Assembly (NCBI GenBank): GCA_947304585.1
Contig: CAMZBI010000001.1
Location: forward strand, 25,501-89,500
From: an uncultured Clostridia bacterium
GTDB taxonomy: Bacteria; Bacillota; Clostridia; UBA1212
DNA: 64,000 nucleotides
Direction of reading: 5' to 3'
Shown: positions 24,272-53,775 of the stretch, piece after piece
How positions within the stretch are numbered: the first letter of the stretch is position 1
Layout: the number at the start of each line of letters is the position of its first letter
Program-made: the position numbers and the translations under genes
Notes under the pieces: model-generated
The model's database searches: none
Seen by the model: the letters and a program-made list of their open reading frames with translations, nothing else
What the model was told of the DNA's origin: nothing

Positions 24272-24304
24272 GCGGAGGCCCGGTCCCGGGTTTCCGCTTT
24301 TTTC
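24272..24304 (+). terminator. intrinsic terminator after tuf
   Basis: GCGGAGGCCCGG…CCGGGTTTCCGC hairpin followed by T6. Confidence 0.7.
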
Positions 24305-31983: not shown

Positions 31984-32056
31984 GGGCCTATAGCTCAGTT
32001 GGGAGAGCGCTGCGTTCGCAACGCAGAGGTCATGGGTTCGAATCCCACTAGGTCCA
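31984..32056 (+). tRNA. tRNA-Ala (anticodon CGC)
   Basis: Manual cloverleaf: acceptor GGGCCTA/TAGGTCC with the G3:U70 Ala identity pair, D-arm GCTC-AGTTGGGA-GAGC, anticodon loop TTCGCAA, T-loop TTCGAAT; no encoded CCA. Confidence 0.85.
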
Positions 32057-32415
32057 CAAGACAGAATCAGGGGGGGTAGCCGTCGAGGTTACCCCCCTGA
32101 TTCTGTCTTGAAACAATAGCGTTGGATTCGAACCCGAGGCCCCCGCAAAATCGTCAGATATATTAAATATGGGGTCCCCGTAAAATCGTTAGATTTTGCG
32201 GGGAAGAGGAGCCACAGCGACGCAAACGGAGACTTTCAAGAGAGAAAGAGAGGAAGTTTCTTGAAAGTCGGAGTCCACGTTGCTTGTGGCGACGTGGAGC
32301 CGCAGCGGAGCGATTGAAGTCTTCCAACAAAGGAGAAAAAAAGAAAACCGTATTAAAACAAGAAATAACGGTTTGTTGCCGACTGAATGATGAAACTTCT
32401 GCCGGCTTTTTTATG
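32057..32415 (+). repeat. structured modular repeat, copy A (abuts tRNA-Ala; ends in terminator)
   Basis: 17-bp hairpin immediately after the tRNA; GGGATTCGAACCC; helix CCCCGCAAAATC…GATTTTGCGGGG; GAGGAGCC; GACTTTCAAGA…TCTTGAAAGTC hairpin; terminator TGCCGACTGA…TCAGCCGGCTTTTTT. Confidence 0.7.
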
Positions 32416-32516
32416 CAAAAGCAAACTTTTTGTGGCAAGACAAGACGAAATGAGTTTGGTACAATTTGCAATGTAAAAAATAGCCGGCATTTTTAAGACG
32501 GGAGGTGATTCCGCAA

Positions 32517-33005
32517 ATGAACACAGCTGAAAAAATCATAGCGCTCAGAGCTGAGAGAGGCATTTCGCAGCAGGAACTTGCTGACGCAGTTTTTGTTTCA
32601 CGATCTCTCGTGTCAATGTGGGAGGCGGGAACACGCATTCCGGACAGTTTGAGCGTTGAGAAAATGGCTGCGTTGTTCAATGTAAGTGAGGAGGAGATTT
32701 TGAGCGATAGGAAATACGCTTTTGCGTCGTCGCTTGAGAGGAAACTCATTGGCGATGAGATTGCGGAGTTTACCGATGTTGACAGTTCACCGGGTGACAA
32801 GGAACAGGTAAAAAAGATAATGAACGGGTTCCTTCAAAGCATTGGTGGCGTTGACCGCGAGTTGTTTATGAGTCGATACTTCGAAATGAAAACATGCAAA
32901 GCTATCTCAGAGGAAACGCATATGAACGTTTCTACAGTCAGGTGGAGATTGTCCAAACTGAGAAAGAAGCTTGTGCTTTACGCGAAAAAAGGAGGTAAAA
33001 AATGA
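32517..33005 (+). CDS. XRE-HTH + sigma-70 region 4 fusion regulator (ECF-like)
   Basis: N-terminal Cro/C1 HTH (…RGISQQELADAVFVSRSLVSMWEAG…); C-terminal sigma region 4.2-like (…RELFMSRYFEMKTCKAISEETHMNVSTVRWRLSKLRKKL). GGAGGTG RBS. Confidence 0.65.
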   Translation: MNTAEKIIALRAERGISQQELADAVFVSRSLVSMWEAGTRIPDSLSVEKMAALFNVSEEEILSDRKYAFASSLERKLIGDEIAEFTDVDSSPGDKEQVKKIMNGFLQSIGGVDRELFMSRYFEMKTCKAISEETHMNVSTVRWRLSKLRKKLVLYAKKGGKK

Positions 33006-35233
33006 ACGAAAAAGACTTTAGGGAGGCTTTGTCTGAGATTGGAAATGACGTCGATGCGCCAATTTCGGGCGACGCAGTGATAAAAAATAAAAGTAAATTC
33101 AGAAACATTGTGATCATATCTGCCGCGGCGGCAATCGTGCTGACTTTTGCGGTCATTGCCGCTGTTATTATCGGTACGATCGGATCGAATAATCAAAACA
33201 TAAGCGGGGGAGGGCCTTCTGACAAGGTCCTTTTGGTGAATACTCCTTCGCCTGGAGGTATTGACAAGACCGAAGAACCCGGCAATAAAGCAAACCACGG
33301 GGCAACGTCCTCGCCGACCGCAGACCCGACTTCAGCTCCCACAAATCCGCCAATTTCTCAGCCCACTGAGACTCCTGATGGACCTCAAGGGACTCGGGAG
33401 CCTTATTACGTTGAGCCTTTCTGGCTTAAGGGGGAGTATTTGACGGTCAAAAAGCTTGGCTACGGCGGCTCCTCAAACATCGTTTCCTTTGGCGAGGGGA
33501 GTGTCAGCGCAAAGATTATCCCCACAACGGTATTCGGCGAGCATGAGAACTGCGGGAAGGTCTACTATAACACGGAGACCAATGAGATATATTGCGTTTA
33601 CCACGAGTTTCTGGAGGCCTCGGGCGTGACCGTGCCGGAGGGTTATTACATCTATTATGAGCAGGACACGGTGCGGGACGATCTGATGTGCATAAAGATT
33701 GTTGATCCGGGTGACCTTGGCACCACGGACCTGTGGCTTTTTGACATGGACGACCGCCTGGCAAAGAGAGTGGGGCTTCCGGAGGGATGCGGCAGCTACG
33801 AGGATATAAAGATCTATACGCCGGGCCTCTGCAACGGGAAGCTTGCCCTTTGCGTCAGCGATGACATTGGCGATTGCTACATAAGTATTTTTAACAGCGG
33901 AACAGGTGAATATCAGGACTTCGGCAAGGACGCAGGCCTTAAGTCTCTGACCTGCACCTTCCTGACGGAGACTGTGCTTGAGGTGTCGACTCCCGACGGG
34001 TATTACGCCTGGAACACCGCCAATTCTAGAATGTTCAAGCTTATCGGTGAGCACAATATCGTGTTTGACGGGCTCCTTTATTCCGTGAAGAACTGGTGGG
34101 GAGGCTACCATAAGGACGTGGAAGTGGCGGTATATAACGTCGAGACCGGGCTCCTGAGGAAGGGAAGCGGCGGCGTGTTGGCATTGGCGGTGATGGACGA
34201 CGGATCCTACGGCGTGCTTTCTATTGACGACGAGACCGGAAATGAGACGGTCATCATGGATCATTATACGGAGGGCGCTACTGCCTGGAGCAAAGATCAT
34301 GCCTACTTTTACGCATATTCCGCCAAGGACAACAGAGTCCTCTGCTATTCGGTCTCCGCTTGCCAATGGACTTTTGCAGACGTTGCTCCGATAACAAAAG
34401 ATCCGGTACTCGTCGAAGGGACTCTTTATGCGGTGTTCAACAGCTGCAGGCTTGCCGTCGACGACAACTGCAGGGAGGTTACGCTTTACCACACAAGAAA
34501 ACTGGAAGAAATACCTGACCTTCCGGATTTTGAGGAGCAGAGGGTTGACTCCCCTTACTGGGACGACTATCGCGACATTGCCGCAAATAACCGTTTCTCG
34601 GAAACTGACCGCTGGTATGTCACCTACAAAGAGGACAGGGTCAGCACGGGATGGATCGGACATGACGTCGCCAACATGGATGCCCTGCGGGATATCATAC
34701 TGCTTTGCCTGGAGACCCGGGGCGAAAGACTAAAATACGATTTGACTGAAAGCGATTACGACTTCTTTAAAATGAGTTTCAGCTACAGTACATTCAGCAT
34801 GGAGTTTTTTGAAAAAGACGGCAGATACTACTTGAATCTCAATGCCAACAGACAGCCTCCAATGGGTTTCGTGAGTGAATTCAGCGAGATACCGGAAGAG
34901 ACTTTCCTAAGGGTCATGGATATGCACAGCCCTTACGTTCAGTTCACATGGATATCGGTATCAGCCCGAATCGACGATGTTTCAGATCCAAATTGCAAGG
35001 TGGTACTTGATGAGAGCGAGAAGAGTTATTTGAAGGAGTTAATATCTTCCGGCAATTGGAGGCAAAACGATTTTCAGGGCGTTACGTATTTCAGGTACGC
35101 ATGCTTTTTCATTGACGGTGATGTGTGGTTCTGTTATGAGCCCAACATGAAAATCTTGCAGGATATCATGCACTCAACACATATAGAGCTAACAGACGAG
35201 GAGTGCGCCGCCATCGACATAATGCTGAATTGA
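33002..35233 (+). CDS. single-pass membrane anti-sigma-like protein with large extracytoplasmic domain
   Basis: 4-nt overlap with the regulator gene; short cytoplasmic N-terminus, one TM helix (IVIISAAAAIVLTFAVIAAVIIG), about 680-aa exterior domain. Confidence 0.5.
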   Translation: MNEKDFREALSEIGNDVDAPISGDAVIKNKSKFRNIVIISAAAAIVLTFAVIAAVIIGTIGSNNQNISGGGPSDKVLLVNTPSPGGIDKTEEPGNKANHGATSSPTADPTSAPTNPPISQPTETPDGPQGTREPYYVEPFWLKGEYLTVKKLGYGGSSNIVSFGEGSVSAKIIPTTVFGEHENCGKVYYNTETNEIYCVYHEFLEASGVTVPEGYYIYYEQDTVRDDLMCIKIVDPGDLGTTDLWLFDMDDRLAKRVGLPEGCGSYEDIKIYTPGLCNGKLALCVSDDIGDCYISIFNSGTGEYQDFGKDAGLKSLTCTFLTETVLEVSTPDGYYAWNTANSRMFKLIGEHNIVFDGLLYSVKNWWGGYHKDVEVAVYNVETGLLRKGSGGVLALAVMDDGSYGVLSIDDETGNETVIMDHYTEGATAWSKDHAYFYAYSAKDNRVLCYSVSACQWTFADVAPITKDPVLVEGTLYAVFNSCRLAVDDNCREVTLYHTRKLEEIPDLPDFEEQRVDSPYWDDYRDIAANNRFSETDRWYVTYKEDRVSTGWIGHDVANMDALRDIILLCLETRGERLKYDLTESDYDFFKMSFSYSTFSMEFFEKDGRYYLNLNANRQPPMGFVSEFSEIPEETFLRVMDMHSPYVQFTWISVSARIDDVSDPNCKVVLDESEKSYLKELISSGNWRQNDFQGVTYFRYACFFIDGDVWFCYEPNMKILQDIMHSTHIELTDEECAAIDIMLN

Positions 35234-35282
35234 CGTGCAGGGTTCAAAAGGACAGGTCGGCGGATGTGACGGATTGAACAGC

Positions 35283-35752
35283 GCATCTATTAAGGATGCA
35301 CTGTAGGGTAAAAACGGCCCACTGCATCTAAACCGACCACACACCACACAGACGCAGGGAGTAGCCTCCACGGCTACTCCCTGTGTCTGTAATAGAAACT
35401 ACCTGGTGGGATTCGAACCGGGGCCCCCGCAAAGATTTGGCGAAAAGGCTTTAATAACGCCAATTCTTTGTGGGGAAAAGGAGGCGCAGAGATGCAAACA
35501 AAGTGATTCAAGCGAATTTGTTCTTAAAATGCTTAGATCACGCAGTCGGCGTCTCTTGCGGCGACGCATTCGTACGCTATTGAGGCTTTTCAAACACGGG
35601 TTTCAAAACTGAAAAACAGTCTTTTTTACAGGTTTTTCTAAAGATTTTTTTGCCGAAATCAATGACCGGTTTCCGGGAAATCCGAGAACAGGATCAAGAA
35701 TAACAACGATATGTTCCCGACTGATTGATGAATATTCAGCCGGCTTTTTTTT
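35283..35752 (+). repeat. structured modular repeat, copy B
   Basis: TGCACTGTAGGG…CTGCATCTAAACCGACCACACACCACA; hairpin CAGACGCAGGGAGTAGCC/GGCTACTCCCTGTGTCTG; 18-bp helix CCCCGCAAAGATTTGGCG…CGCCAATTCTTTGTGGGG; AAAGGAGGCGCAGAGATGCAAAC; micro-ORF; terminator. Confidence 0.75.
35529..35612 (+). other. Arg-rich micro-ORF inside repeat copy B (MLRSRSRRLLRRRIRTLLRLFKHGFQN)
   Basis: ATG conserved in copies B, C and D2; coding status uncertain. Confidence 0.25.
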
Positions 35753-35821
35753 ATGCAAAAAAATGAATTGAAGGATTTCACATCGAAGGAACAATTGAAA
35801 ACAATTTCACACTTTGTACAT

Positions 35822-38230
35822 TCACTCAACCGCTTTCTGTTTACCGAAAAGGATAGAGCCAAGAGAAATATAGTCTCCGCGCACATGATCGATCCTGAAC
35901 CTCGCCGAGCGGTCATACTCATATACCATGTATGCGCCGCCGCAATAATCCTTTAAAATTTTCACAGGAGCAATCAGGTTTAAGCTTTTTGCGTCAAACA
36001 TCTCTACCGCGAGGCAGCAGTCCGGAGCATTGGCAGTAAAACGGAGAGCCACAGTATATTTCTGCTTCCGTTTCATCTTAATATCGGCGGTGAAAGACTG
36101 GGCGCAAACGTTATCATAATTTGTGCCGTAGGTTTCAGAGCCGCCGTTTTTGATGTAAATCCCGCGTGACAGGACGATATCTTCAACATATTCCGGAAGC
36201 TTTGATTTAACCATGGAAGAGCAGTCAAAGAAGCCGTCACTGCCGTATTTCTCATTGGCGTCGCGGTCGATGCCTTTGAAGGACGCAGGGTAGCAAAACA
36301 TAGGTGCTCTGTACGTTTTAACCCTTCCGGTATAAGCGGCGCTGAAAGTGTATTCCCCGGCGGAAATGTTTTCATAATAACAAAAATCATCGTCTTCCTT
36401 GTCAAAGGTTGCAGGGGAACCATTCAATTCTATATTTGAAATACGCATTCCTGCCTTGGGGATGGCGACGAGAGCTTCCGTACCTTCGGGTACCGAAACA
36501 TGATGAATTCCTTTTTTTATGTCAAACGAGGCTCTTATTGTGCCGTGAGGCGTAGGCATATCGCCAATGACATTTTTTAACTGAGTGCCCAAATGGGGGA
36601 TAACCGAAAACTTCTCGAAACCCGGTTTGACAGGTTTTATACCCAGTACTTCTGTGCTTAGAAAAGCAAGGACGCCTGCGCTCCAGGGATGAGCAAGACT
36701 TGTATATCCCGCCTGACTGTTCGGCAAGGGACCGTTCTTGTCGATTTCGTCTTTCCAGCCCGGACGAAAAACTTCAAAGAAGCAGGTCCCGCCGTATTCT
36801 ATCTGAGACCCCCAAAGATCAAGGATCGATGATAAAGCATCATCGTATTTACCTGTTTTGGCGAGAGCCTTAAGGATAAAGAACTCGTTGAAGGGAGAAT
36901 AGGATATGCGGTTGGTGCGGTCGTTAAAAAACTTTTTGAACAATTCTTCTCGGACCTTTCCGTCTGCGACACCGGCATTCACCGAGTCCGCAAAAGCATG
37001 GATGCCGCAGGACTTGTGCCATAAAGGATCGCTGCTTAAAAGAATACCCTTTTCCTCAGCATATCTCGTGCAACGCCGGGCGTAGTCCTGCCGCCCGAGC
37101 AAATTGAATATATCGGCATATTTTTTGAAACATTCAATGGAAAGAAACTTATATGAAAGACGGTTCTCGGGTATGTCCGGGTTTTCAAAACCCGCGCCAA
37201 GGCGTTCATCCCAGCCGAAAAATGAGAGCGGATAGTTTTTGTCAAAGATTTCATTGGCGTGTTCCAGTCTTTTAACAGCCTCGTCGATCAAACTCAATAC
37301 GCCTACATTATCTCCGGAAAAATCATAGTAGTCGGCAAGTGAAAGAAGCCAGTACAGTTCAAAGCTTTCTATACCGTTCGGGTGTGCGGAAGTATGTTTC
37401 AGGTTTTCAAGCACAAAGTCATAGTTGGCAAATGCTGCAAGAGAAGCTGCCTGAGCGGTGTAAGCGTCTCCTGTCCACGAATGGCGATCACCGCGGTCAA
37501 TAAGTATTGCCGACATGTAGTCTTTTTTCAAATTGACTCTAACGTCATAGGCAGCCGTGTACCAGATCCGGTTCAGCATCCGATTGTCGCACTCAAATGA
37601 GCCGTAATAGTTGACCGGTTTTACCTGGCAGACAAGTCTTACGCCGGTGATATGAAATTCCTTTTTAAGTCCTTGTATATGAATGAAACCGAAGCGCACG
37701 CCCTCATAAAGTTCCGGGTTAAGAACAAGCCTGTAAACGGTATCTGACACTTTTACGGGGTGCCTTGTCTTTTTTGATGACTGAACTCCCCGGTTAACGA
37801 TCTCGGGACTTGTGTACTCACTGACGCTTAACACAATGTTTTCCGGATCGCCAAGGTCAGGACTCATTATCTCAAGCCACGCCGCAAATTCCGAACCGAA
37901 GTCGATCATTACGGTACCATCGCCTTTTACGGTTAAATCTGTATCACCGGAAAGCAACGATTCAAGGTTCAGGAAACTGTTATTGTCCTCCGTTTCATAC
38001 TTTACCGGATAGGCGAAGAAAACCCGCAGCTCGTTTCCTGCGCTCACGTCGTCAAAGCGATAAGACAGAAGAGGATCAGGGGAAAAAGCAGCACCGGCGT
38101 TTTTTACCAATGTCCCGCCCGATATGTGTTTATAAGGTTCTTCGATATCAATATTGGCGATATTGATTCTGAATCTGTCGGAATGATCGTTGCACATGAA
38201 ACTCTGATTATCAATTTCCCGCAAAAGCAT
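35822..38230 (-). CDS. six-hairpin glycoside hydrolase, alpha-L-rhamnosidase-like (GH78-like)
   Basis: 802-aa ORF; central (alpha/alpha)6-type segment (…RHSWTGDAYTAQAASLAAFANYDF…). Exact start uncertain; family assignment by resemblance only. Confidence 0.5.
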   Translation of the reverse strand: MLLREIDNQSFMCNDHSDRFRINIANIDIEEPYKHISGGTLVKNAGAAFSPDPLLSYRFDDVSAGNELRVFFAYPVKYETEDNNSFLNLESLLSGDTDLTVKGDGTVMIDFGSEFAAWLEIMSPDLGDPENIVLSVSEYTSPEIVNRGVQSSKKTRHPVKVSDTVYRLVLNPELYEGVRFGFIHIQGLKKEFHITGVRLVCQVKPVNYYGSFECDNRMLNRIWYTAAYDVRVNLKKDYMSAILIDRGDRHSWTGDAYTAQAASLAAFANYDFVLENLKHTSAHPNGIESFELYWLLSLADYYDFSGDNVGVLSLIDEAVKRLEHANEIFDKNYPLSFFGWDERLGAGFENPDIPENRLSYKFLSIECFKKYADIFNLLGRQDYARRCTRYAEEKGILLSSDPLWHKSCGIHAFADSVNAGVADGKVREELFKKFFNDRTNRISYSPFNEFFILKALAKTGKYDDALSSILDLWGSQIEYGGTCFFEVFRPGWKDEIDKNGPLPNSQAGYTSLAHPWSAGVLAFLSTEVLGIKPVKPGFEKFSVIPHLGTQLKNVIGDMPTPHGTIRASFDIKKGIHHVSVPEGTEALVAIPKAGMRISNIELNGSPATFDKEDDDFCYYENISAGEYTFSAAYTGRVKTYRAPMFCYPASFKGIDRDANEKYGSDGFFDCSSMVKSKLPEYVEDIVLSRGIYIKNGGSETYGTNYDNVCAQSFTADIKMKRKQKYTVALRFTANAPDCCLAVEMFDAKSLNLIAPVKILKDYCGGAYMVYEYDRSARFRIDHVRGDYISLGSILFGKQKAVE

Positions 38231-38233
38231 TTC

Positions 38234-39307
38234 TCATCGGTCTATAACAGCTTTAATAACTCCGCCGCCGATAACCAAACCTCTTTCATCATAAAAAACG
38301 GCGGACTGCCCCTGTGCGGCAGCCCTCACGGGCTCGTCAAATTCAACTCTTACAGTGTCGTTTCTCGCTTTTTCGATAAATGCGGGCTGACCTTTGTGCC
38401 CGTATCTGATCTTGACAATGCATCTTACTTTTTTACTGTCCTCAAGGCTCTCAATACTCATAAAGTTCAGATTATTGCAAAGTATTTCCCGATTGTAGAG
38501 AGAGTCACTCTTTCCGATAACGACTTCGTTTTTTTCCGGGAGTATTTCCTTCACATAGCCCGGATATCCCAGGGAAATACCGAGCCCTTTTCTTTGGCCC
38601 ACAGTGTAATATATGATTCCCTTATGCCTTCCCAGCACATTTCCGTCAGGATCGACAAAATTGCCTTCTTTTGCACAGCCTGTTTTGGCTGCAATAAAGT
38701 CCCCGTAGCTCCCGCCGGTCACAAAGCAAATCTCCTGAGAATCCGGCTTTGAAGCAACGGCAATTTCCGCCTCCTTTGCGATACTTCTGACTTCGTCTTT
38801 ACTTAAACCGCCAAGAGGCATCAGCGTCGCTGCAAGCTGTTCCTGGGTCAGCCTGTAAAGCATGTAAGTCTGGTCCTTTTCGGTATGGCAGGCTGTCTTC
38901 ACCGTATACCTTCCGTTCTCAAGCTTTTCAACAGAAGCGTAGTGCCCGGTGGCAATATGATCTGCCCCGAAAACCTTGGCGTAAAACAGAAGCTTCTCCC
39001 ATTTAACATACCTATTGCAAAAAACACAGGGGTTGGGTGTACGGCCGGAAAGGTATTCGCCGACAAAAGGCTCTACTATATGTCTCCTAAAATCCGACGT
39101 ACAGTTTATGGGATAATAAGGTATGCCGATGCTTCTTGCGGCGTCTCTTGCATCGTCGATGTCGCAACAACGTCCTTCGTCACCGTCTTCAGTCTGCCAG
39201 ACCCTCAGGGTCACGCCAATGACATCATATCCCTCTTTTTTTAGGAGATATGCCGCTACGGCGCTGTCGACTCCTCCCGACATTCCCACAACAACCTTAT
39301 TACCCAT
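38234..39307 (-). CDS. mnmA: tRNA 2-thiouridine(34) synthase
   Basis: PP-loop VVVGMSGGVDSAVAA and conserved cysteines. Confidence 0.9.
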   Translation of the reverse strand: MGNKVVVGMSGGVDSAVAAYLLKKEGYDVIGVTLRVWQTEDGDEGRCCDIDDARDAARSIGIPYYPINCTSDFRRHIVEPFVGEYLSGRTPNPCVFCNRYVKWEKLLFYAKVFGADHIATGHYASVEKLENGRYTVKTACHTEKDQTYMLYRLTQEQLAATLMPLGGLSKDEVRSIAKEAEIAVASKPDSQEICFVTGGSYGDFIAAKTGCAKEGNFVDPDGNVLGRHKGIIYYTVGQRKGLGISLGYPGYVKEILPEKNEVVIGKSDSLYNREILCNNLNFMSIESLEDSKKVRCIVKIRYGHKGQPAFIEKARNDTVRVEFDEPVRAAAQGQSAVFYDERGLVIGGGVIKAVIDR

Positions 39308-39572
39308 AATAATTTACTGCCCGGAACACATTGCTATAAAAGAAATGCGATCATTCAACTTTTTTGAGTGGTTTAAAGTTTTTGTCACCATCCCTGAAAA
39401 AAGATTACGGTAGATTATAAACCTTTCTGCCTACTATGTCAATGGGTATATTCTGCTGTGCCGGGATCAATGTATCAACACGGATTGGTATGGAAAAGCA
39501 TTGGCGGCTTTGATATCTTCCTGTGACGCATATTTCACCAAGGTAACGCTGCAGTTAGGTCCGTAGGAGAGC

Positions 39573-40266
39573 GACTCTATTTAGTTTTCAAGTCATGTTA
39601 TCTTGTACACTGTATCTATTTAGTCTGTACAGTGCATCTTTTAGGGATGTACAGTAGGCCAAAAACGGCCCTCTGCATCTAAATCGACCACACACCACAA
39701 GGTGAACCCGGGTCCCCGAAAGTGCTCGCGCTTTTGGGGAGAGGAGCCGGGGCGGCGGGAATGGAGTCTTTCAAGTGAGGATCTATAAACTTCTTGAAAG
39801 ACGGAATCGTCGGCGTTCGCGGCGACGAAAATAGATGCACACGCAAAAATCGGCTATTTTTAGCCGATTGGAGCGGCTCGAAAGGCCAAAAATTTTAGTG
39901 CGAAATAAAAAGATGCAAAAGCCTATTCCCGAGGGGAATCCATAGGGGCCCCCGAAACTCGCTTTCACACATTGGCCCGTCACTAGTCCGCTTTCGCGGA
40001 AATCGTTCCGGCTCCAATGTGTGGCGCGAGATGGGCCTATTTATGCGCTTTTGGGGAGAAGGAGCCGCAGAGACGCAAACGAAGTGGTCCAAGCGAATAC
40101 AATCTTATAATGCTTGAAACACGCAGTCGGCGTCTCTTGCGGCGACGCATTCGTACGCTATTAAAGCCTTACAACAAGAGTCTTTAAGGGAAAAAGAGAG
40201 CTATATTAAAACAAGAAATAACGGTTTGTTGACGACTGAGTGATGAAACTTCAGCCGGCTTTTTAG
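39573..40266 (+). repeat. structured modular repeat, copy D (composite, two tandem module sets)
   Basis: ACTGTATCTATTTAG and TGTACAGT(×2) block; CCCCGAAAGTGC…GCGCTTTTGGGG; GTCTTTCAAG…CTTGAAAGAC; AATCGGCTA-TTTTT-TAGCCGATT; second helix CCCCCGAAA…CTTTTGGGG enclosing CACACATTGG…CCAATGTGTG; micro-ORF; terminator. Confidence 0.75.
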
Positions 40267-40409
40267 ATCCGACAAACATCCAATCAATGTTTCTTTGTTT
40301 TGTAACGGTTGACTTTCTGCCATTTAAAAATCACGCAATCTATGCTATACTGTCATTACTAAATTTGAAATGCCAAACTGGCAGAGCAAGTTAAGATTGG
40401 AGCCTTGCT

Positions 40410-41357: not shown

Positions 41358-41379
41358 CTGCACGAAAGGCTGAAATCTC

Positions 41380-42726
41380 ATGGGACAATCATTTGAACGA
41401 ATACTTGCTCTAAACAAGGAAACAACAGGCTTGTCGTTGGTTCCCGGAATGCGTAAAGCTGCTGCAGAAATCGGATATTCAGAAAGCACGGAGGGTATTG
41501 GCATTTCCGTTCGTATAAGGCGTCATGAAGACAGCGAGTGGTACGAAATCGAGTCGCCTCTGCTTGGATCCACCGCAGAAACAGCAGAGCCTTTTTTGAG
41601 GGCAATTTCCCGCGAAGTGCATACACCGGTGCTTTTCCTTTGTTGTGTCGACAGTGATTTTGTTTATTGCCGGTTGATAGACTCTACTACCGAAATCGAT
41701 ACAGGCGCCTGCTTAGGAGAACCGTATGTTGACGTCGGTGAACCGGATTACAATGCGTGGGCCGGAGCATGTAAAAAGAAATGGAAGTGCACTGCCGAAC
41801 AGTTTCGTGAAGTGTTCGAGGGCGATTATGTCTTCGCAGAAGAGGGGCTGGAACCGCTTGCTGCGCTGATGCATTTCTCACCGGTTGTTGTAAATGTGTC
41901 TGAAGATGAGCCTGCCGACAGGATAATATGGTTTTCACCTTCTGGAGATGGGACCAACGCCAGGTCTCCGCAAACGTTGCTCGAAAAAGCTGCGGATTTC
42001 ATGGAAACAGAGTATGCGGACAAATTGGTCGAAAAAGGCTTTCAACGGTTTAAAAACTCTCCGCTTCGGTGGCATAAGCTCGTTGGCGACGAGGGCAACG
42101 AGGTGCTGCAGAGCATTGTTATCACTTCGCATTACGATTGGTATGAGATCTTTTACGGAGCACAATCGCTGTATTGTCCGGTTGTCTTCTCCGACAAGTA
42201 TTATCCGCATCACGACAATGATCTTTACTGGCTGGAAGCTCGTTTTGAGTATGTATGTAATGTCGACAAAGGTCTGTTCTACATTGAAGAGGAGAATCCT
42301 GAACTTGGCAAATGCGAAAGAATGTTGCCTTTTGACGACCCGCAGCAGTTCCGTCCCATACTGGAAAGATTGATCTTTCCTGCGCTCGACCGCATCGTTG
42401 ATCTTACGACATGCCACGATGCATATATGCAAACGCGCCTGGTCAAACTCTATAAGGACAATCCAAAGATTAATATTGATCATTCAAGGCTTTGGCTCGA
42501 GGCATTTCTCTCCGGCGATGAAGCATTGACCAAAAAACATTTTGCGCTTGTTAAACAACTGTATGAAAATCAAAAACAAATAGCACGAAATCTAAACATA
42601 GAATGTGAAGAGCCGCTGGTCGAAGCCTTTGGCAAAGGCGATATGGTCCTGTTCAGAGAATTATTGGACAAGACATATGCCACCAATATGAAAAATCTCA
42701 GGAACGCAGGGGTCGTTCAACGGTGA
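41380..42726 (+). CDS. hypothetical protein (448 aa, no recognised domain)
   Basis: Intact ORF 22 nt downstream of the ORF6N gene; low GC. Confidence 0.4.
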   Translation: MGQSFERILALNKETTGLSLVPGMRKAAAEIGYSESTEGIGISVRIRRHEDSEWYEIESPLLGSTAETAEPFLRAISREVHTPVLFLCCVDSDFVYCRLIDSTTEIDTGACLGEPYVDVGEPDYNAWAGACKKKWKCTAEQFREVFEGDYVFAEEGLEPLAALMHFSPVVVNVSEDEPADRIIWFSPSGDGTNARSPQTLLEKAADFMETEYADKLVEKGFQRFKNSPLRWHKLVGDEGNEVLQSIVITSHYDWYEIFYGAQSLYCPVVFSDKYYPHHDNDLYWLEARFEYVCNVDKGLFYIEEENPELGKCERMLPFDDPQQFRPILERLIFPALDRIVDLTTCHDAYMQTRLVKLYKDNPKINIDHSRLWLEAFLSGDEALTKKHFALVKQLYENQKQIARNLNIECEEPLVEAFGKGDMVLFRELLDKTYATNMKNLRNAGVVQR

Positions 42727-42755
42727 ACCTGGACTGAGCTTTTATAATCCAATCT

Positions 42756-43254
42756 CATATGCATCTATTTGGTCTGAACACTGTATCTATTTAGGATGTA
42801 CAGTAGGGTAAAAACGGGCCTCTGCATCTAAATCGACCACACACCACACACAGAATCAAGGGGTAGCCTTCGCGGTTACCCCTTGATTCTGTGTTGAAAC
42901 AATAGCGTGGGATTCGAACCCGGGGCCCCCGAAAGATTTGGCGAAAAGGCTTTAATAACGCCAATTCTTTGTGGGGATAAGGAGCCGCAGAGACGCAAAC
43001 GAAGTGATTCAAGCGAATTTATTCATAAAATGCTTGGATCACGAAGTCGGCGGCTCTTGCGGCGACGCATTCGTACGCTATTGAGGCTTTTCAAACACGG
43101 GTTTTAAGACTGAAAAACAGTCTTTTTTACAGGTTTTTCAAAAGATTTTTTACCGAAATCAACGACCGGTTTCCGGGAAATCCGAGACCGGGATCAAGAC
43201 AAATAACAACGATCTGTTGCCGACTGAGTGATGAAAATTCAGCCGGCTTTTTGG
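42756..43254 (+). repeat. structured modular repeat, copy C
   Basis: Near-identical architecture to copy B, but the 5' hairpin is ACAGAATCAAGGGGTAGCC-TTCGC-GGTTACCCCTTGATTCTGT. Confidence 0.75.
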
Positions 43255-43344
43255 TTTGTTCGAAATGTTTGATTTTTGGCGTTGTTTAGAGTAAGATAGT
43301 TTTGAAATCTAACAGTTCGATAAACAGGGATTTGTGAGGATGTT

Positions 43345-43812: not shown

Positions 43813-44034
43813 AGACATATTCCGGTTTGTCAAAATAAAACCATCCCGCAAAAAAGCATAGGGCCTGTGGAAAGTGATAACATTATTGATTATTGATTCC
43901 GCAGTTTCCTTTTTGCACACTGTTTGCCTTCTTTTGCAATTGCAAATACACCCATTATTTCTTAGAATATGAACACTGCATGATGCTGTTCACTTTTGAG
44001 AGAGGTTTCCGAAAAACGGAAAGATGGCGCTTTT

Positions 44035-45576: not shown

Positions 45577-46443
45577 TGACTGCTCTCCGGCATCTGTTGG
45601 GGAAACGGGACCCGACCGGATCTTGACGGAGGAGGGGGAGATTCCGAAATGTTTGACAAAGGATTTGTAGAACACCGAGTAATCCCCGAAACCGCACCTT
45701 GATGCCGCAGTCTTAATGCTGCAGCCTTCCGATATGAGATTGTAGGCCAGATCAAGCTTTTTTACGGTGATATATTGCCAAACGGATATGCCCAGGGCAT
45801 CGCGGAAAAGCCGGTTCACGTGGGAGTTGCTGTAATGGAACACTGATTCGATAAACGACAGATCGGATATCATGTTGAGATTGTCGCCAATGTAGTCGAT
45901 CACCGCGTTCAGAAGCTCTGTGCCCCCGTTCTTTTTGCCCTTATATTCAAACGCAATACCGTTTTTCCGGACCGCATTGTGACAAAGTTCATAAAGTACA
46001 GCCTTAATATACGTGAAGTACATTTCCGGGTTCGTATCCGAACGCTCGTCGCAGATACGGCTCATACATGAAACGACTGTCGGGTAGATCGCGCTGTCTA
46101 CCGTAAGAACAGCTCCGCTTTTGCTCTTGCACAGATCTGCAAGGCCGGCAAGCACATTGTCGAGTTCCGCATTTTTGCAGGCTTTGGGAATAAACTGCAC
46201 AGCGAAAAATTCAAACGGCGCTTCATTTATCAAAAGGCCGTGGGATTCATTTTCAATCATGAATGCGACGTCATTGGCGCCAAGTTCATACTCCGTGCCG
46301 CCGATAACGATCCCGCATTTTCCCTTTGTAACGACAAGTATTTCATGCGAGGTGTGGCTGTGAACGGGATATGAAAAGCCGTCAGCGCTTTTTTCGACTT
46401 TATGAACAGTGTATAATCCGTACATCTCCATATTGTGCATCAC
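45562..46443 (-). CDS. AraC family transcriptional regulator (cupin + HTH)
   Basis: C-terminal AraC HTH (…IKTAASRCGFGDYSVFYKSFVKHFGISP…). Confidence 0.85.
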   Translation of the reverse strand: MMHNMEMYGLYTVHKVEKSADGFSYPVHSHTSHEILVVTKGKCGIVIGGTEYELGANDVAFMIENESHGLLINEAPFEFFAVQFIPKACKNAELDNVLAGLADLCKSKSGAVLTVDSAIYPTVVSCMSRICDERSDTNPEMYFTYIKAVLYELCHNAVRKNGIAFEYKGKKNGGTELLNAVIDYIGDNLNMISDLSFIESVFHYSNSHVNRLFRDALGISVWQYITVKKLDLAYNLISEGCSIKTAASRCGFGDYSVFYKSFVKHFGISPSSVKIRSGPVSPTDAGEQSSTAF

Positions 46444-46561
46444 CCGCTTCGATTATATTAAAACAGTATCGTTATTGCAATATCGCTTCACGGTTTTGCA
46501 ATTGTAATTGCAATCATTATGAAGTAATCTTATTTCATACTTTTGTTTGGAGGACGCAGCA

Positions 46562-49500: not shown

Positions 49501-49588
49501 TCTTGGCGTTGCGATCGTTACTCCCGCCAAACTGCCAAATGAAGATAAAGTCAATGGGGCGTTAAACGAACTGTATATTTCGTATTGA
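46562..49588 (+). CDS. large secreted lipoprotein, glycoside-hydrolase-like core plus C-terminal copper-amine-oxidase-N-like domain
   Basis: Signal/lipobox …LLYGCDG; GGAGG RBS. C-terminal …YQIPVAPYVKGNVLYVPLNAAA… resembles the Cu-amine-oxidase N-domain of clostridial surface proteins. Catalytic family unresolved. Confidence 0.45.
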   Translation: MKKRIRGFLCILLGIVMILLYGCDGTGNGPGRVYVFDDGITEDRGQAGTETKEPQIYSYTQNFDQRIKANDPDWYVNSEGTFEDGVFKSKTNHAYFASKHKIKTDVFVAEWDVNTDRKGNTDNVSEYIGLRLPGYDDQFAAVGSNGIWFLFHNNKVGIIDTWPTVKSFKVDVDFSKTQRVRVTDNTVDNIITFEVQQEGEFRPLFSAVIEDGKNVFVKDVNGKDRIKAKFTYDIDTKGYFSLWSSGGNSGSAYIDNVEINWKEALPEQYHPADITLLRDLYSDTWVATDDLDRTVSDGAAAPRDKLVGMFYQIWFTPTSVTYSDQKIYDHNKIYHEGGFEALKKAYDKGPQGWGHYWGEPYFGYYLTNDKWIIRKHASMLSDIGVDFIFLDVTNGNSQTTSYRAIFKEYEQMRKEGLDTPDICFFIADNTSLVENVFLDIWDDVYSTGRYSDLYVMYDGKPLILGNLSELSEEASAIANENFTWRRCWALRENVKDGKDFWTWMHETPQVASYNSKKGNAVEEISISAGILANTSTGRSFSNGKQPGVGTLPDGTKDYFQFNLETTGQGLLFKEQMQRAQEVDPYVVLINEWNEWIAGRWEGTGHPTIANTYVSWSDSFYVDCFDPEFSRDIEPMKGGFGDNYYYQLAAFLRTFKGGRTAPAASGQHEISLNGGLDQWSDVWPEYRDTTGDTLHRDSLGYGGLVSYKNDSGRNDIVSAKVSRANGKTYFLAVCADSLTPREGENWMNLFIDTDGNSANGWHGYDLIINRDNGSIEKFTDGWNMQKTGQCELFAGENYLVLAVDDASCGLGADFNFKWSDNSTTTGEIMQFLDLGDAAPNARFNYAYRTKAKETKLTANVKTVVGAGASFTANRPYALSDGKIAAVYGADTAVLPEMHKNRLFVPASSLDIIKDMTVTVSGGTATVKYKNKTFVFEDGNKEVKRGNDTYQIPVAPYVKGNVLYVPLNAAAFIAGLNYVQNDLGVAIVTPAKLPNEDKVNGALNELYISY

Positions 49589-49629
49589 CCGTACTCGTTT
49601 GAATACGGGAAGAGTCTTCCTTCAGCGCC

Positions 49630-49740
49630 GCACCTGTTTGGTCTGCATACAGTATCTTTTTATATGCACACGCAGAAATCGGCTATTTTTAGCCGATTGG
49701 AGCGGCTTGGAAAGCGATTTTTTGAGCAATGAAATAAAAA
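49630..49740 (+). repeat. partial copy (E) of the structured repeat
   Basis: TTTGGTCTGCATACAGTATC…GCACACGCAGAAATCGGCTATTTTTAGCCGATTGGAGCGGCTTGGAAAG matches the internal segment of copy D. Confidence 0.55.
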
Positions 49741-49819
49741 GAGACAAATGCCAATTATGGCGTTTTTGTGCTGTCGATTGCGGATCGGTAGGCATTGGCG
49801 CCAATGCTGCCGGATCGCA

Positions 49820-51238
49820 TCACCTTTTTCCCGCATCCTTGCCGATCCTGAAGATAAGATTGCCGTTTTCGTCATAGCCGGAATAAACGGTCTCCACGTT
49901 GAGTCCGATCGAATTAACAAGCGGGCCCTTATCATATACACTTTTCACGTATTCCGAAACTATGAGACAGTACTCACCGTAATCAATAACTGCAGTCGGC
50001 GTTCCTGCGTCAAAGTCCTGAAAACGACTGTCATTTGAGAAAATGAATGAACCGTTTATAATTCCCACTAACGATTCGTTGCGAAACATATTATCTGACA
50101 CTGTCGATCCGAGAACGTTAAGGTCGTAATCGATCTCCACGTTCATGTCGACAGCGAGAACGGTTTTACCGGAATCAACAAAATCACCGTCGGTCGACTG
50201 CGTTCTGACGAAAAGCATAAACCCGCCCTCAGAGGGTTTTGCATAGTTTAAATGATCAAAATCACTGCCTTTGAGGAAACCTCTTTTGATCTCTTGTCCG
50301 TCATCGGCGAGAATGATCATTATAACGTCGGTCTCTCCGTAGTCACGCCACTTCTGCTGATCACGATGCGTTCCGAAAAAGAAATATCTGCCTTCCCTTT
50401 CGATGCAGTTGTAAAACGAACTGCCCTCAAGGCCGTCAAATGCTTTATCAAACTGGAGATTTCCGAATCTGTCGCATTTTATGACTCTCGAGGCGTAACC
50501 TTCATCGCTCGCCCGTTTTTGATCCAAATAGTCATAAGTATAATCTTGAAAGCCGAGGACGAAAAGAAAGCCTCCGTCGGAAGTTGCGGTCAGTGTCGTG
50601 ACGATGTATGCGTCATCGCATTTCACGGTATACTCGGCAAGAACGTCGCCAAAGATATCGAGCATCGTTACCTTTTGAACGACCGTTCTCGTTTCCGGAT
50701 CTTTTTCAACGGTCTCACTTTTCAGCAGTCTGTCGGAAAAAGCTTTGGCGTCTTTAAAGGCGTTCTCATCGATGAGGCTCGTAAGCTCCGGCGGTATCGC
50801 GCCGCTGTCTGTCTCTCGAGGCGGGAAAACGTACCTGTTCCAGATTTCCTCAAGCATCTCGGGTGTCATTTCGGCGTTCCCGATCTCCTCGCAGGGAACA
50901 CTGTTTTTGATTACTTCCGCTGTTTTCTCATCCGTGAACCTTTTTTCTATGATATCGAAGAATACGTTTTTCATTTCTGTACGGCTGAGACCTTCCGAAT
51001 TCAGTCCGTTGTTTTCAAAGAAGGCTGAAGCAGCGTCAAAGGCCTTGGCTTCCGAATAGGCAAATACGCCTGCCACGGCAGCAAGTGCCGCGATTAGAAG
51101 AACGCATACGGACACGGGTATCCATCGTAAATGGTTCCGGCTGTTTTTTTTACTCGATCCTGAGTACGATCTCAAAGCACGGTCAGCCATTTCTTCGTCT
51201 ATACCGGCGAACGCGTCGAAAAGCTGGTTATCTTTCAT
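49820..51238 (-). CDS. single-pass membrane anti-sigma-like protein (paralog of 33002..35233)
   Basis: N-terminus MKDNQLFDAFAGIDEEM resembles MNEKDFREALSEIGNDV of the first partner; one TM helix; 4-nt overlap with the upstream regulator gene. Confidence 0.5.
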   Translation of the reverse strand: MKDNQLFDAFAGIDEEMADRALRSYSGSSKKNSRNHLRWIPVSVCVLLIAALAAVAGVFAYSEAKAFDAASAFFENNGLNSEGLSRTEMKNVFFDIIEKRFTDEKTAEVIKNSVPCEEIGNAEMTPEMLEEIWNRYVFPPRETDSGAIPPELTSLIDENAFKDAKAFSDRLLKSETVEKDPETRTVVQKVTMLDIFGDVLAEYTVKCDDAYIVTTLTATSDGGFLFVLGFQDYTYDYLDQKRASDEGYASRVIKCDRFGNLQFDKAFDGLEGSSFYNCIEREGRYFFFGTHRDQQKWRDYGETDVIMIILADDGQEIKRGFLKGSDFDHLNYAKPSEGGFMLFVRTQSTDGDFVDSGKTVLAVDMNVEIDYDLNVLGSTVSDNMFRNESLVGIINGSFIFSNDSRFQDFDAGTPTAVIDYGEYCLIVSEYVKSVYDKGPLVNSIGLNVETVYSGYDENGNLIFRIGKDAGKR

Positions 51239-51717
51239 TTTTTTGACTCCTTTATGTACCTTGCAAGTTTGGCTCTTGTCTTTGAGAGAATGCTCCTGAC
51301 GTGATTCTCGCGAATGCCGTACGCTTCAGCGATCTCGGCAGTGTTCTTCAGGTGATAGTAACGATTAATAAAAATATCAGCGTCCTTTTCCGGGATGCTC
51401 CTTAGAAAACGGTCCAAAACAACTGCCAGATCTGCGTCGCTGATTTCGATTCCGGCAAGGTTGCCGTCAAAGAGTTCTTTGAAAACAAGGTCGGTTGTAT
51501 CAACTATTTCGTCAACTTTGGCGTTAAATACTTCTGCTATTTTTTCGATCATACGATAATTCGGACGCCTCGTTCCGTTTTCCCATTTTGAGACCAGATC
51601 TCTTGAGACAAACAAACTGTCGGCAAGCACCTGCTGAGACATACCGTTTTTATTGCGCAATTCACTTATTTTTTTGCCGATATTCAGCGAAAACACCTCC
51701 TTTGACCATGATCGCAT
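51235..51717 (-). CDS. XRE-HTH + sigma-70 region 4 fusion regulator (paralog of 32517..33005)
   Basis: Same two-domain architecture (…GMSQQVLADSLFVSRDLVSKWENG… and …DIFINRYYHLKNTAEIAEAYGIRENHVRSILSKTRAKL). Confidence 0.65.
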   Translation of the reverse strand: MRSWSKEVFSLNIGKKISELRNKNGMSQQVLADSLFVSRDLVSKWENGTRRPNYRMIEKIAEVFNAKVDEIVDTTDLVFKELFDGNLAGIEISDADLAVVLDRFLRSIPEKDADIFINRYYHLKNTAEIAEAYGIRENHVRSILSKTRAKLARYIKESKK

Positions 51718-51900
51718 GTAAATTATACCTCATTGACGGTAACATAATAAGGGACAAAACGCACCCGGACCGGAAAGATTGTTTTCGTAAGCTTATTCCC
51801 CGAATTTTTTATGATTTTGGGAAATAATCCCGGTACTCTGATGATCCGAAGGTGCTCTCTTGCCAATGGGACAGGGAAGAAGTAAGCGGGACTCTTTACG

Positions 51901-52085
51901 GAGTTATGTACAGTACCCGCGAAAACCCTTAAAAACCCGGGAAAATACCGCCAAGAAATCTAAAACGACCACACCCCCCAAGGATAAAGACTCCTTCGCG
52001 GGGGCTTTTTCGTGGCGTTGTACAAGCGCTAAGAGGCCCCCGAAAGCGCTTGCACTTTTGGGAGGAGAAAAGCCGCAACGACGTT
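51901..52085 (+). repeat. partial copy (F) of the structured repeat, upstream of the AAA ATPase gene
   Basis: ATGTACAGTA…TCTAAAACGACCACAC; GACTCC-TTCGC-GGGGGTC hairpin; GAGGCCCCCGAAAGCGCTTGCACTTTTGGGAGGAG. Confidence 0.65.
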
Positions 52086-52201
52086 TTTGGATATGAATCA
52101 AATTCACTTGACAAATTGCGATTATGTATATATAATGCCAAAAACAAATTGCGATTACGTCGTGATTTGACCCAAAAGAAATTGCGACAGGAGATTACGC
52201 C

Positions 52202-53530
52202 GTGTTTAGAAGAAAAATCTATGATAAGCTTTTGGAGTGGAAAAAGGAATCACAGGGCAGAACTGCGTTGATGATTGAAGGGGCTGGGCGAGTTGGAAAA
52301 TCGACAGTAGCGGAAGAATTTGCGAAAAATGAATATGACAGTTTTATTCTTATAGACTTTTCAATTGCGCCGCAGGCTGTCAAGAACCTTTTCGATGATA
52401 TGTCGAATCTTGATTTCTTCTTTCTTCAACTTCAACTGCTATACCATGTCGACCTCGAAGAACACAGATCTATTATTATTTTTGACGAAGTGCAGTTCTT
52501 TCCAAAAGCCAGGCAGGCGATAAAGCATCTGGTCAAGGACCGAAGATACGATTATCTTGAGACGGGCTCTCTTATCTCGATAAAGAAAAACGTAAAAGAC
52601 ATTCTGATTCCAAGTGAGGAACAGAAAATCAAAATGTATCCGATGGACTATGAGGAATTCCTTTGGGCCATTGGCGATAATACGACGATTCCTCTGATCC
52701 GCCAATGCTTTGAATCGCGAAAGGCTGTGGGCGAACAGCTGAACCGGAGACTTATGCGCGATTTCAGGTTATATATGCTTGTCGGCGGTATGCCTCAGGC
52801 TGTAAATGAATACCTGGAAACGAATAATTTACGGAAAGTCGATCTTGTCAAGCGAACGATTTTGTCGCTTTACGAAGAGGATTTCAGGAAAATCGACCCA
52901 TCCGGAAGAGCTTCTATGATGTTCGATGCCATACCTGCGCAACTTTCGAAGAACGCATCAAGATATATGATAACAAGTGCTCTGCAAAAGAGAAAGACCG
53001 AAAAAACATCCGAAATGATAGCCGATATGGCAGATTCAGGGACCGTTTTGATTGCTTGTCATGCTGACGACCCGAACGTCGGCCTTTCGGCCACCGGAGA
53101 CTTTTCCTCTTTTAAGATGTTTGTATGTGATACCGGACTTTTCGTAACACTGATGTTCAAGGACCGTGATTTTACTGAAAATATCATATATGAAAAACTG
53201 CTTAACGACAAGATTGGAGCAAATCTTGGATATTTGTACGAGAATGCCGTGGCACAAACGCTTGCATCTAACGGAGACAGGTTGTTTTACTACACATTTT
53301 TCAACGAGTCATCCCGGCACAACTACGAGATCGATTTTCTCTTGGCACGCGGAAACAAGATTTGCCCTGTTGAAGTTAAATCGTCAGGATACAAGGCCCA
53401 TGTTTCTTTAGATAAGTTTTTTGAGAAGTACTCGTCGCGTATTCTTCAAAAATATCTTGTTTATACTAAAGATCTCGCCAAAGATACCGATACGCTTTGC
53501 GTGCCTGTTTATATGGCCCAATTCATGTAA
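52202..53530 (+). CDS. AAA+ ATPase (AAA_14 + DUF4143 family)
   Basis: Walker A GAGRVGKST; the widespread orphan ATPase family; GTG start after AGGAG; low GC. Confidence 0.75.
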   Translation: MFRRKIYDKLLEWKKESQGRTALMIEGAGRVGKSTVAEEFAKNEYDSFILIDFSIAPQAVKNLFDDMSNLDFFFLQLQLLYHVDLEEHRSIIIFDEVQFFPKARQAIKHLVKDRRYDYLETGSLISIKKNVKDILIPSEEQKIKMYPMDYEEFLWAIGDNTTIPLIRQCFESRKAVGEQLNRRLMRDFRLYMLVGGMPQAVNEYLETNNLRKVDLVKRTILSLYEEDFRKIDPSGRASMMFDAIPAQLSKNASRYMITSALQKRKTEKTSEMIADMADSGTVLIACHADDPNVGLSATGDFSSFKMFVCDTGLFVTLMFKDRDFTENIIYEKLLNDKIGANLGYLYENAVAQTLASNGDRLFYYTFFNESSRHNYEIDFLLARGNKICPVEVKSSGYKAHVSLDKFFEKYSSRILQKYLVYTKDLAKDTDTLCVPVYMAQFM

Positions 53531-53775
53531 GATTATTGCCAAGAAAACTAAAACGTCTACACACTCCACGAAAAAAGACTCCTTCGCGGGGTCTTTTTTC
53601 GTGGTGGAGCAAGTAAAGAAAGAGGCCCCCGAAAGTGCTTGCACTTTTGGGAGGAGGAGCCAAAACGGCGGAAATGGGGAGTCCTTCAAGGAAACGAAAA
53701 AACGAGAGTGGAATAATGACAAATAATAACGGTTTGTTGCCGACTGAGTGGTGAAGCTTCAGCAGGCATTTTTTA
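53531..53775 (+). repeat. copy G of the structured repeat, immediately downstream of the AAA ATPase gene
   Basis: CTAAAACGTCTACACAC; perfect 14-bp stem CCACGAAAAAAGAC/GTCTTTTTTCGTGG around the TTCGC loop; GAGGCCCCCGAAAGTGCTTGCACTTTTGGGAGGAGGAGCC; terminator. Confidence 0.7.

Follow-up and report, generated by a model that had tools for sequence, protein, structure and literature searches.

Results

A modular repeat block behind tRNA-Ala(cgc)

The window analysed here is a 64,000-nucleotide (nt) stretch of DNA from an uncultured Clostridia bacterium of the UBA1212 lineage (assembly GCA_947304585.1, contig CAMZBI010000001.1, positions 25,501 to 89,500, forward strand). It carries a modular intergenic repeat in seven copies, A to G, all of which lie in one 22-kb block (32–54 kb) that starts at a tRNA gene, with none in the other 42 kb. 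We divided the repeat into modules M1 (about 90 nt), M2, M3, M4, M5 and M6, of which M2 is the 5' hairpin under study. Among the copies lie genes for HTH/sigma-r4 proteins, each with a large membrane protein, for ORF6N, GNAT, NAGPA and AraC proteins and for AAA_14-DUF4143, together with a split tubulin-like gene and a rhamnosidase plus mnmA. The remainder of the window is core chromosome, with dnaA, dnaN, fusA and tuf among its genes. The tRNA gene and the hairpins, with the open reading frames (ORFs) that precede them, are as follows.

31984–32057, + strand: tRNA-Ala(cgc), anchor of the array (Rfam, 66.1 bits; ARAGORN)
32058–32109, + strand: hairpin A, GTAGCC family; directly abuts the tRNA end; one bulged G; inner core terminator-like in a scan
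35348–35390, + strand: hairpin B, GTAGCC family; 19 pairs including one G·U; 115 nt past the stop of ORF 33002–35233 (+)
42848–42894, + strand: hairpin C, GTAGCC family; 21 pairs; loop TTCGC; 122 nt past the stop of ORF 41380–42726 (+)
about 51978–52015, + strand: hairpin F, GACTCC family, decayed, with four substitutions and one indel, none compensated
53564–53606, + strand: hairpin G, GACTCC family; A6-stem-T6; 34 nt past the stop of ORF 52202–53530 (+)

When folded as RNA, hairpins A, B, C and G reached −42.2 kcal/mol (z −9.1), −38.5 kcal/mol (z −10.8), −38.2 kcal/mol (z −10.3) and −27.9 kcal/mol (z −6.3), respectively. Hairpin F reached −14 kcal/mol (z −0.5), and its shuffles fold equally well. 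Stems of at least 16 pairs number five in the whole window against 0–1 in each dinucleotide shuffle (n = 20); two of these five are gene terminators, that of tuf and one between convergent genes.

The five hairpins had been picked out in a first-pass annotation of this DNA and, with coordinates and sequences checked, all were located where it had placed them. The sequences it gave are correct for all but copy A, in which seven G of the 5' arm stand opposite six C of the 3' arm; one G is bulged, and the claim of perfect complementarity fails for this copy. The G·U to G-C switch that it described between copies B and C is real (GTAGCC/GGCTAC in B, GTAGCC/GGTTAC in C). By homology A, B and C are related to each other, as are F and G, and the GTAGCC and GACTCC groups are unrelated. 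We could not uphold the idea of a single hairpin drifting into ‘entirely different’ outer stems, since G and F represent a non-homologous module at the same position, and at least eight unrelated hairpin sequences occupy the position after the tRNA end in relatives. As read from the sequences, the difference between families is module replacement.

The TTCGC loop was said to be common to C, F and G, which is true within the window. In relatives, however, the same hairpins have TTCGA, giving an extra pair and a 3-nt loop, and the remaining hairpin types have loops of 3–6 nt with different closing pairs, so that the CC/GG clamp and 5-nt loop are not the retained features they were taken to be. 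The apex reads CCTTCGCGG in the window (42869–42873, 51995–51999 and 53585–53589) and CCTTCGAGG at related loci, here designated by L numbers (L014 at about 1945, L001 at about 3491 and L014 at about 11345).

The hairpins are built and placed like intrinsic terminators

All 14 distinct junction hairpins of the window and its relatives have a G+C-rich core followed by 6–10 U in the next 14 nt, and these are paired to an A-rich 5' arm. The same build is found in the tuf terminator (24266–24303) and the convergent-gene terminator (14927–14968) of this window. The hairpin itself is ordinary, being constructed like the usual intrinsic terminators of this genome. A simple terminator scan scored the cores of A and F as terminator-like, hairpin G has the shape of a textbook bidirectional intrinsic terminator, and U-runs of 4–6 are present in G, F, L001, the Lys types and the E-type, a further kind of hairpin found in copies D and E. 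The stems of the junction hairpins are unusually long and perfect, at 17–22 pairs.

Each hairpin stands directly 3' of a tRNA 3' end, of a copy of one, or of a cassette end. Where the hairpin is intact it follows a co-directional unit, the tRNA in the case of A and ORFs, at the distances given above, in the case of B, C and G. At both junctions where it fails, being decayed in F and absent from D, the upstream gene is divergent. This pattern of intact hairpins after co-directional units and of decay or absence after divergent genes is the behaviour expected of a terminator. Taken with the evidence from relatives below, the hairpins are probably Rho-independent (intrinsic) terminator modules at the tRNA-proximal end of integrase-less integrative units, which together with gene cassettes accreted in tandem behind tRNA-Ala(cgc), and they are putative sites of termination.

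Pairing is conserved while the stem sequence changes

The GTAGCC family was aligned from five members, A, B and C of the window and L014_1966 and L016_1700 of relatives. Both sides have changed in 6 of the 22 stem pairs, with A-U to G-C, G-C to C-G, G-C to A-U and U-A to G·U among the kinds of double change. Pairing is kept in 96% of cells. None of 500 shuffles reached the covariation score of the alignment, and sliding the partners left only 40–46% paired. The uncompensated events comprise bulges of 1 nt in A and 2 nt in L016_1700, one A·C in L011_9992, and the four substitutions and indel of F. Substitutions are as frequent in the stem as in the flanks, but those in the stem are compensated, and mismatches do not accrue there at the flank rate. 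These data support the view, already put forward in the first-pass annotation, that the hairpin fold is kept by selection acting on pairing rather than on sequence.

Apart from the single A·C in L011_9992, every non-Watson-Crick pair in the stems is a G·T on the + strand, and the + strand of the hairpins folds 2–6 kcal/mol better than the − strand. Together these observations favour a fold of RNA that runs in the same sense as the tRNA, and they argue against mere templated correction of DNA palindromes. The hairpin may also have a role at the level of DNA, as a cruciform or a folded single strand, although the evidence does not require one.

Related units form arrays behind three tRNA genes

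Pattern scans for the family gave matches only in rumen/gut-type Clostridia assemblies (L001–L003, L006, L011, L014 and L016). The M6 pattern was found at three loci only in genome contigs, and the M5 pattern gave 4 real relatives among 13 matches in metagenomes. The range of the family seems to be a narrow one within rumen/gut Clostridia. A phage or plasmid origin of the units was considered and rejected, as searches of viral contigs (three patterns) and of phage and plasmid collections returned no match to the family.

In these relatives the arrays are anchored at tRNA-Ala(cgc), tRNA-Ala(ggc) and tRNA-Lys(ctt). Five tandem units lie behind the tRNA-Lys of L011, and units of the same plan are found at Ala(ggc) in L006 and at Ala(cgc) in L014, L017 and L018–L025. 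A unit consists, in order, of the hairpin, an inverted copy of the tRNA T-arm/3' end (M3), a core that is either M4 plus M5 or a second type termed X, and a direct copy of the tRNA 3' end begun inside the T-loop (GAGTCCCTGAAGGTGCACCA); direct repeats that start in the T-loop are seen in all of the loci just named. Many units are gene-less and only about 200 bp long (~190–240 bp). Both M3 and the direct fragment correspond throughout to the tRNA at their own locus, M3 being GGGATTCGAACCC for Ala, a CCCG-specific version for Ala(ggc) and GGGACTCGAACC for Lys. The hairpin always starts 0–3 nt past the CCA end of the tRNA or of the direct tRNA 3' fragment, or overlaps it. A stem identical to that of hairpin G lies 3' of tRNA-Ala in L001 and L018–L025.

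Several comparisons between loci speak for mobility of the units. L017 carries a 209-bp insertion (hairpin, M3, M4 and M5) that is absent from L016, a presence/absence polymorphism with clean boundaries; the insertion starts in the T-loop, has AATCCCACYAGGTCCACCA on its flanks and lies between GGGTTCG and AATCCCAC.... The only difference between L018 and L019 is a single X unit of 196 bp, a change in unit number that fits homologous recombination between units. Between hosts the 150 nt after the tRNA are 95–98% identical, and the adjacent TmcAL is 63–68% identical in DNA and 54–65% in protein. Cassettes 97–98% identical to those of the window occur in other contexts in the RUG13779 assembly.

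Tyrosine integrases of the T-loop class leave direct repeats that start in the T-loop as their signature; an example is Ms6 in tRNA-Ala, where small alterations of the attP core redirect the element towards other tRNA-Ala genes (PMC1762012). Tandem elements that are att-flanked and lack an integrase, known as CIMEs, are produced by accretion (PMC5704250). The recombinase of the present units is presumed to be a tyrosine integrase acting in trans.

The remaining modules of the window

The other modules are listed below; copies D and E are given whole.

32122–32136, + strand: M3 of copy A, inverted tRNA T-arm copy (TTGGATTCGAACCCG); inverted match of 32057–32135 to 32110–32034
32138–32294, + strand: structured core of copy A; M4 hairpin to 32204, 89-nt M5 at 32206–32294
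32365–32411, + strand: M6 of copy A, a terminator-like hairpin and T-run that closes the repeat ahead of the cassette promoter; family D3
35260–35347, + strand: M1 of copy B, right-end module of a cassette, with ATCTAWWTAG/ATGTACAG repeats and ending ...CGACCACACACCAC; family D4
35398–35419, + strand: M3 of copy B, inverted copy of the tRNA-Ala 3' end (reverse complement GGTTCGAATCCCACCAGGTAG)
35421–35749, + strand: rest of copy B, with M4, M5 (35478–35566), linker and M6 (35705–35749)
39611–40264, + strand: copy D, which has no 5' hairpin; M1 to 39699, M4 and M5 at 39711–39827, E-type terminator hairpin at 39845–39869, second M4 and M5 at 39943–40147, M6 at 40218–40264; upstream gene divergent (38234–39307, −)
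42760–42847, + strand: M1 of copy C; family D4
42906–43252, + strand: rest of copy C, with M3 (42906–42921), M4, M5 (42979–43067), linker and M6 (43208–43252)
49620–49756, + strand: copy E, a partial M1 and an E-type terminator hairpin (49675–49698) between convergent genes
51906–52075, + strand: copy F, with M1, the decayed hairpin and truncated M4/M5; upstream gene divergent (51235–51717, −)
53538–53563, + strand: short M1 of copy G; family D7
53625–53772, + strand: rest of copy G, with M4, partial M5 and M6 (53726–53772)

The tRNA-Ala(cgc) of the window (31984–32060) ends ...GGTCCA-CAA and has no encoded CCA, whereas all of its relatives encode CCA, and its acceptor stem differs from that of L001 through compensatory changes. 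M1 is built on direct ATCTAWWTAG/ATGTACAG repeats and ends ...CGACCACACACCACA; in four copies (35260–35347, 39611–39699, 42760–42847 and 51906–51977) there are 2–3 such repeats about 22 nt apart; at the right end of each gene cassette, they resemble arm-type sites for protein binding. We also considered the M1 end as a degenerate tRNA-Ala fragment, for which it is a weak candidate: it agrees at 15 of 27 positions, but in L011 the same M1 end stands ahead of a Lys-type hairpin. M3 consists of GGGATTCGAACCC plus flanks, M4 is a hairpin whose length varies and whose base, CCCCCGAAAG...CTTTTGGGG, is conserved, and M6 is a hairpin followed by a T-run. In all copies of M6 (32365–32411, 35705–35749, 40218–40264, 43208–43252 and 53726–53772) there is the same A·C mismatch on the + strand, a position that would be G·U if read on the − strand, whereas the conserved T-run is on the + strand.

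The structured cores, M5 and type X

M5 has a constant length of 87–89 nt (AAGGAGCC ... GGCGACG). It is found at 32206–32294, 35478–35566, 39741–39827, 40059–40147 and 42979–43067 in the window, and also in L001, L003, L006, L011, L014, L016 and L017. Eleven of its 26 pairs are double-changed and 90.8% of cells are paired, against 34–47% in slid controls. The strand bias is mild, with 23 G·T and 11 A·C cells, and M5 may act either as RNA or as DNA. No sigma-70 promoter was predicted upstream of the hairpin, the units or M5. Searches of Rfam 15 with the window and six loci returned only tRNA, 5S rRNA and a purine riboswitch at gathering score, and E-value searches that included copy C and the L011 array gave chance-level matches of miRNA type only.

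Type X is a second gene-less core (...CGAGAGGGTCGAGGCG..TCCGGTGGATGATTTGTAGCCGAGATCGCG..GCTCGAGCAG...), with versions adapted to Ala and to Lys. Its copies are as follows.

L011, 14296–14118, − strand: type X
L003, 3062–3240: type X
L014, 13510–13176, − strand: type X
L018–L025, just after tRNA-Ala: type X

It is 95–98% identical between hosts in which the flanking gene is about 65% identical. Two further readings of these cores were rejected. A tRNA or tmRNA pseudogene on the − strand behind M3 and type X was negative in ARAGORN, and the T-stem seen by eye has only three pairs. A tRNA-like acceptor/T-arm minihelix that would close each unit as RNA fits the Lys type-Y units of L011, but the acceptor pairing is absent in L006 and L014 and only the T-loop part is conserved.

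Genes carried by the arrays

The commonest cassette encodes an HTH_3/sigma-70 region 4 protein followed by a single-pass membrane protein (743–792 or 472 amino acids) with no known domain.

32505–35233, + strand: commonest cassette
49820–51717, − strand: commonest cassette
L003, L011, L014, L016, L018, L021 and L022: further copies of the commonest cassette

Judged by its domains, the cassette looks like a sigma/anti-sigma-type pair. The 743-residue protein was considered as a hidden recombinase and rejected, having no Pfam, NCBIfam or PDB matches. An anti-sigma-like segment forms its N terminus, and it further contains one membrane helix and a Pro/Thr linker; we read it as the likely anti-sigma counterpart of the HTH/sigma-r4 protein. 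The array also contains, in the opposite orientation between copies B and D (35822–39307, −), a rhamnosidase-like gene and mnmA, for a tRNA 2-thiouridylase; mnmA is normally a core gene. Just beyond the last repeat copy a tubulin-like (PF13809) gene is present in two ORFs (54010–54384 and 54423–56567), a split for which a frameshift, pseudogene formation or an error in sequencing could account. Elsewhere in the window, the purine-riboswitch match (25146–25273) scores 39.3 bits against a gathering threshold of 37, has a 30-nt insertion in P2 and lies upstream of ORF 25334–26569.

Discussion

An element that recombines inside the T-loop must supply a replacement 3' end for the tRNA, and its insertion would separate the tRNA, or the preceding cassette, from the old terminator. 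A terminator of its own right after the att core would restore a proper transcription unit, and in units that bear cassettes the same module would end the preceding cassette. Selection on the stem-loop of the sense transcript, with its G+C-rich core and U-rich distal 3' arm, would then keep the arms complementary while the sequence drifts, as in A, B and C; recombination between units would exchange entire hairpin modules (GTAGCC, GACTCC, E-type and Lys types); and the hairpin would decay (F) or be lost (D) where nothing co-directional needs terminating. The terminator reading accounts in this way for the position and build of the hairpins, for their free sequence with preserved pairing, for their replacement by unrelated hairpins and for their decay where there is no upstream transcription. 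Like known intrinsic terminators, including bidirectional ones with paired A- and U-tracts, they combine a G+C-rich stem-loop with a U-rich stretch just after tRNA genes or ORFs, their sequence is free so long as the stem is kept, and the tuf terminator is built in the same way. Unlike them, these have stems of 17–22 pairs, an interrupted U-tract in the GTAGCC family, and a place in a mobile unit with an inverted tRNA T-arm copy downstream.

Several observations weigh against this interpretation. Hairpins A, B and C have no uninterrupted U-run, only 6–8 U in 14 nt (tails CCCUGAUUCUGUCU, CCUGUGUCUGUAAU and CUUGAUUCUGUGUU), and are weak by canonical rules. M3 is found 3' of nearly every hairpin and co-varies with the target tRNA, for which a role in termination gives no account, and the conserved cores are likewise left unaccounted for, M5 with its constant length and strong covariation among them. 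The 9-nt apex CCTTCGMGG shows an identical C/A polymorphism in two unrelated hairpin families, which termination also leaves unexplained; exchange of the apex or parallel change is possible. The window itself has no recognisable tRNA fragments as direct repeats, only the degenerate M1 ends, and the signature of integration comes from the relatives. Finally, no recombinase or integrase domain was found in the 64-kb window or in about ten related arrays (10 kb), the rest of the genome not having been searched.

In a rival explanation the selected fold is one of DNA. The tRNA 3' fragment, palindrome and M3 would form a single long hairpin in single-stranded or cruciform DNA, the base of which reconstitutes the T-arm duplex of the tRNA (the attB core), and a recombinase would act on it as on integron attC or CTX-phi attP, the centre needing only to be self-complementary. 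We consider such a recombination site unlikely, although much of the layout suits it: every hairpin is set between a direct and an inverted copy of the T-arm region of its cognate tRNA, M3 tracks the specific tRNA in its Ala, Ala(ggc) and Lys versions, and the central stems vary freely yet remain paired. As with integron cassettes, the units are gene-less with no integrase nearby, and no promoter is predicted for them. The arrays further resemble integrons and the folded single-stranded attP of CTX-phi in having conserved inverted repeats around a variable self-complementary centre, cassettes without a recombinase of their own, and growth at one anchor site. However, a DNA site would not need the uniform G+C core and U-rich 3' arm, and hairpin decay in F goes together with the absence of a transcription unit upstream. 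The near-perfect hairpins have none of the extrahelical bases that give attC its strand choice, nor the R''/R' core motifs (RYYYAAC ... GTTRRRY); no IntI adjoins the array, the genes are outside the palindrome-to-palindrome ‘cassette’ frame, and the anchor is the tRNA T-loop. In the window, moreover, B, C and G have M1 and not a T-arm upstream, which makes the long hairpin impossible there. A further idea is that selection plays no part: hairpin-templated repair, through quasi-palindrome correction or gene conversion, would keep the palindromes perfect, and compensation would be a mutational by-product. Double changes in palindromes arise automatically through template switching, and the stems are nearly perfect, as this idea would have it. 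Yet G·T persists across diverged copies, for instance G47·T57 in four of the five family members, where templated correction would remove it; the mismatches are almost only of the kind tolerated by RNA, on one strand; and F has decayed uncorrected. We regard this origin of the compensation as highly improbable.

Two other explanations keep a role for RNA or for the palindromes as such. In one, close to the view of the first-pass annotation, the hairpin is the 5' domain of a structured non-coding RNA spanning M2–M6, either as its first helix or as a processing or stability signal. The constant length (87–89 nt) and strong covariation of M5 speak for such an RNA, as do the fold of the entire unit (z −9.8) and minimum-free-energy folds in which M3 pairs with the 3' tRNA fragment and closes the units. 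We nevertheless hold it to be quite unlikely, as there is neither a predicted sigma-70 promoter upstream of the hairpin or units nor an Rfam match, the strand bias of M5 (23 G·T against 11 A·C) is only mild, and a strong terminator-like 5' hairpin would itself block transcription into the unit. The hairpin and core are also not a fixed pair: hairpin types are exchanged independently of core types, a unit without a hairpin exists (D), and so do hairpins without a core (L014_1966 and L016_1700). The other explanation treats the repeats as dispersed palindromes akin to REP/BIME, which stabilise mRNA 3' ends or bind proteins and spread independently of tRNA integration. They share with REP/BIME and BOX repeats a mosaic of short modules that is rich in palindromes and lies between genes, and some copies flank a gene of housekeeping type, mnmA. 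In contrast to those repeats they are clustered, as far as visible, in tRNA-anchored arrays with tRNA 3'-end direct repeats: all seven window copies fall in the 22-kb block that the tRNA starts, with none in the other 42 kb, and at none of the related loci do the modules occur apart from a tRNA 3' end or array. This makes independent dispersal very unlikely.

If the hairpins are terminators of integrative units, the closest precedents for the whole are tandem accretion arrays, CIMEs among them, and the T-loop att sites of Ms6 (PMC5704250, PMC1762012). The likeness lies in tRNA 3'-end direct repeats starting in the T-loop, in several att-flanked, integrase-less elements behind one tRNA, and in cargo of accessory and defence type. 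What differs is that many units here are gene-less, some 190–240 bp long, with a structured core (M4/M5 or X) and an inverted T-arm copy, that about ten arrays have no integrase, and that one unit family is adapted to three tRNAs. As a tRNA-linked accretion island, an array made up of such miniature units, gene-less and spread horizontally, is an unusual variant. A bolder proposal, to which we give little credence, would make the arrays an integron-like cassette platform anchored at tRNA genes, with a trans-acting recombinase, a folded single-strand site that mimics the T-arm duplex, and M5 and type X as structured accessory sites. Should it be true, compensation in the stem would reflect selection on the fold of DNA, and rumen Clostridia would have in these arrays a new means of bringing accessory and defence genes together.

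As terminators, the hairpins would be a clear natural example of terminator stems that evolve through compensatory change and module swapping, and of mobile DNA that brings a replacement terminator for the tRNA gene it invades. Their surroundings are less ordinary, with units of about 200 bp that are nearly unchanged across hosts in which the neighbouring gene is about 65% identical, and with integrase-less arrays that collect sigma/anti-sigma pairs and AbiEi, Fic, ORF6N and AAA_14-DUF4143 cassettes. The array of units merits follow-up more than the hairpin does. If a recombinase and its mechanism were found, the units would form a new miniature class of integrative elements, and they might also represent a new cassette-capture platform in gut and rumen Firmicutes.

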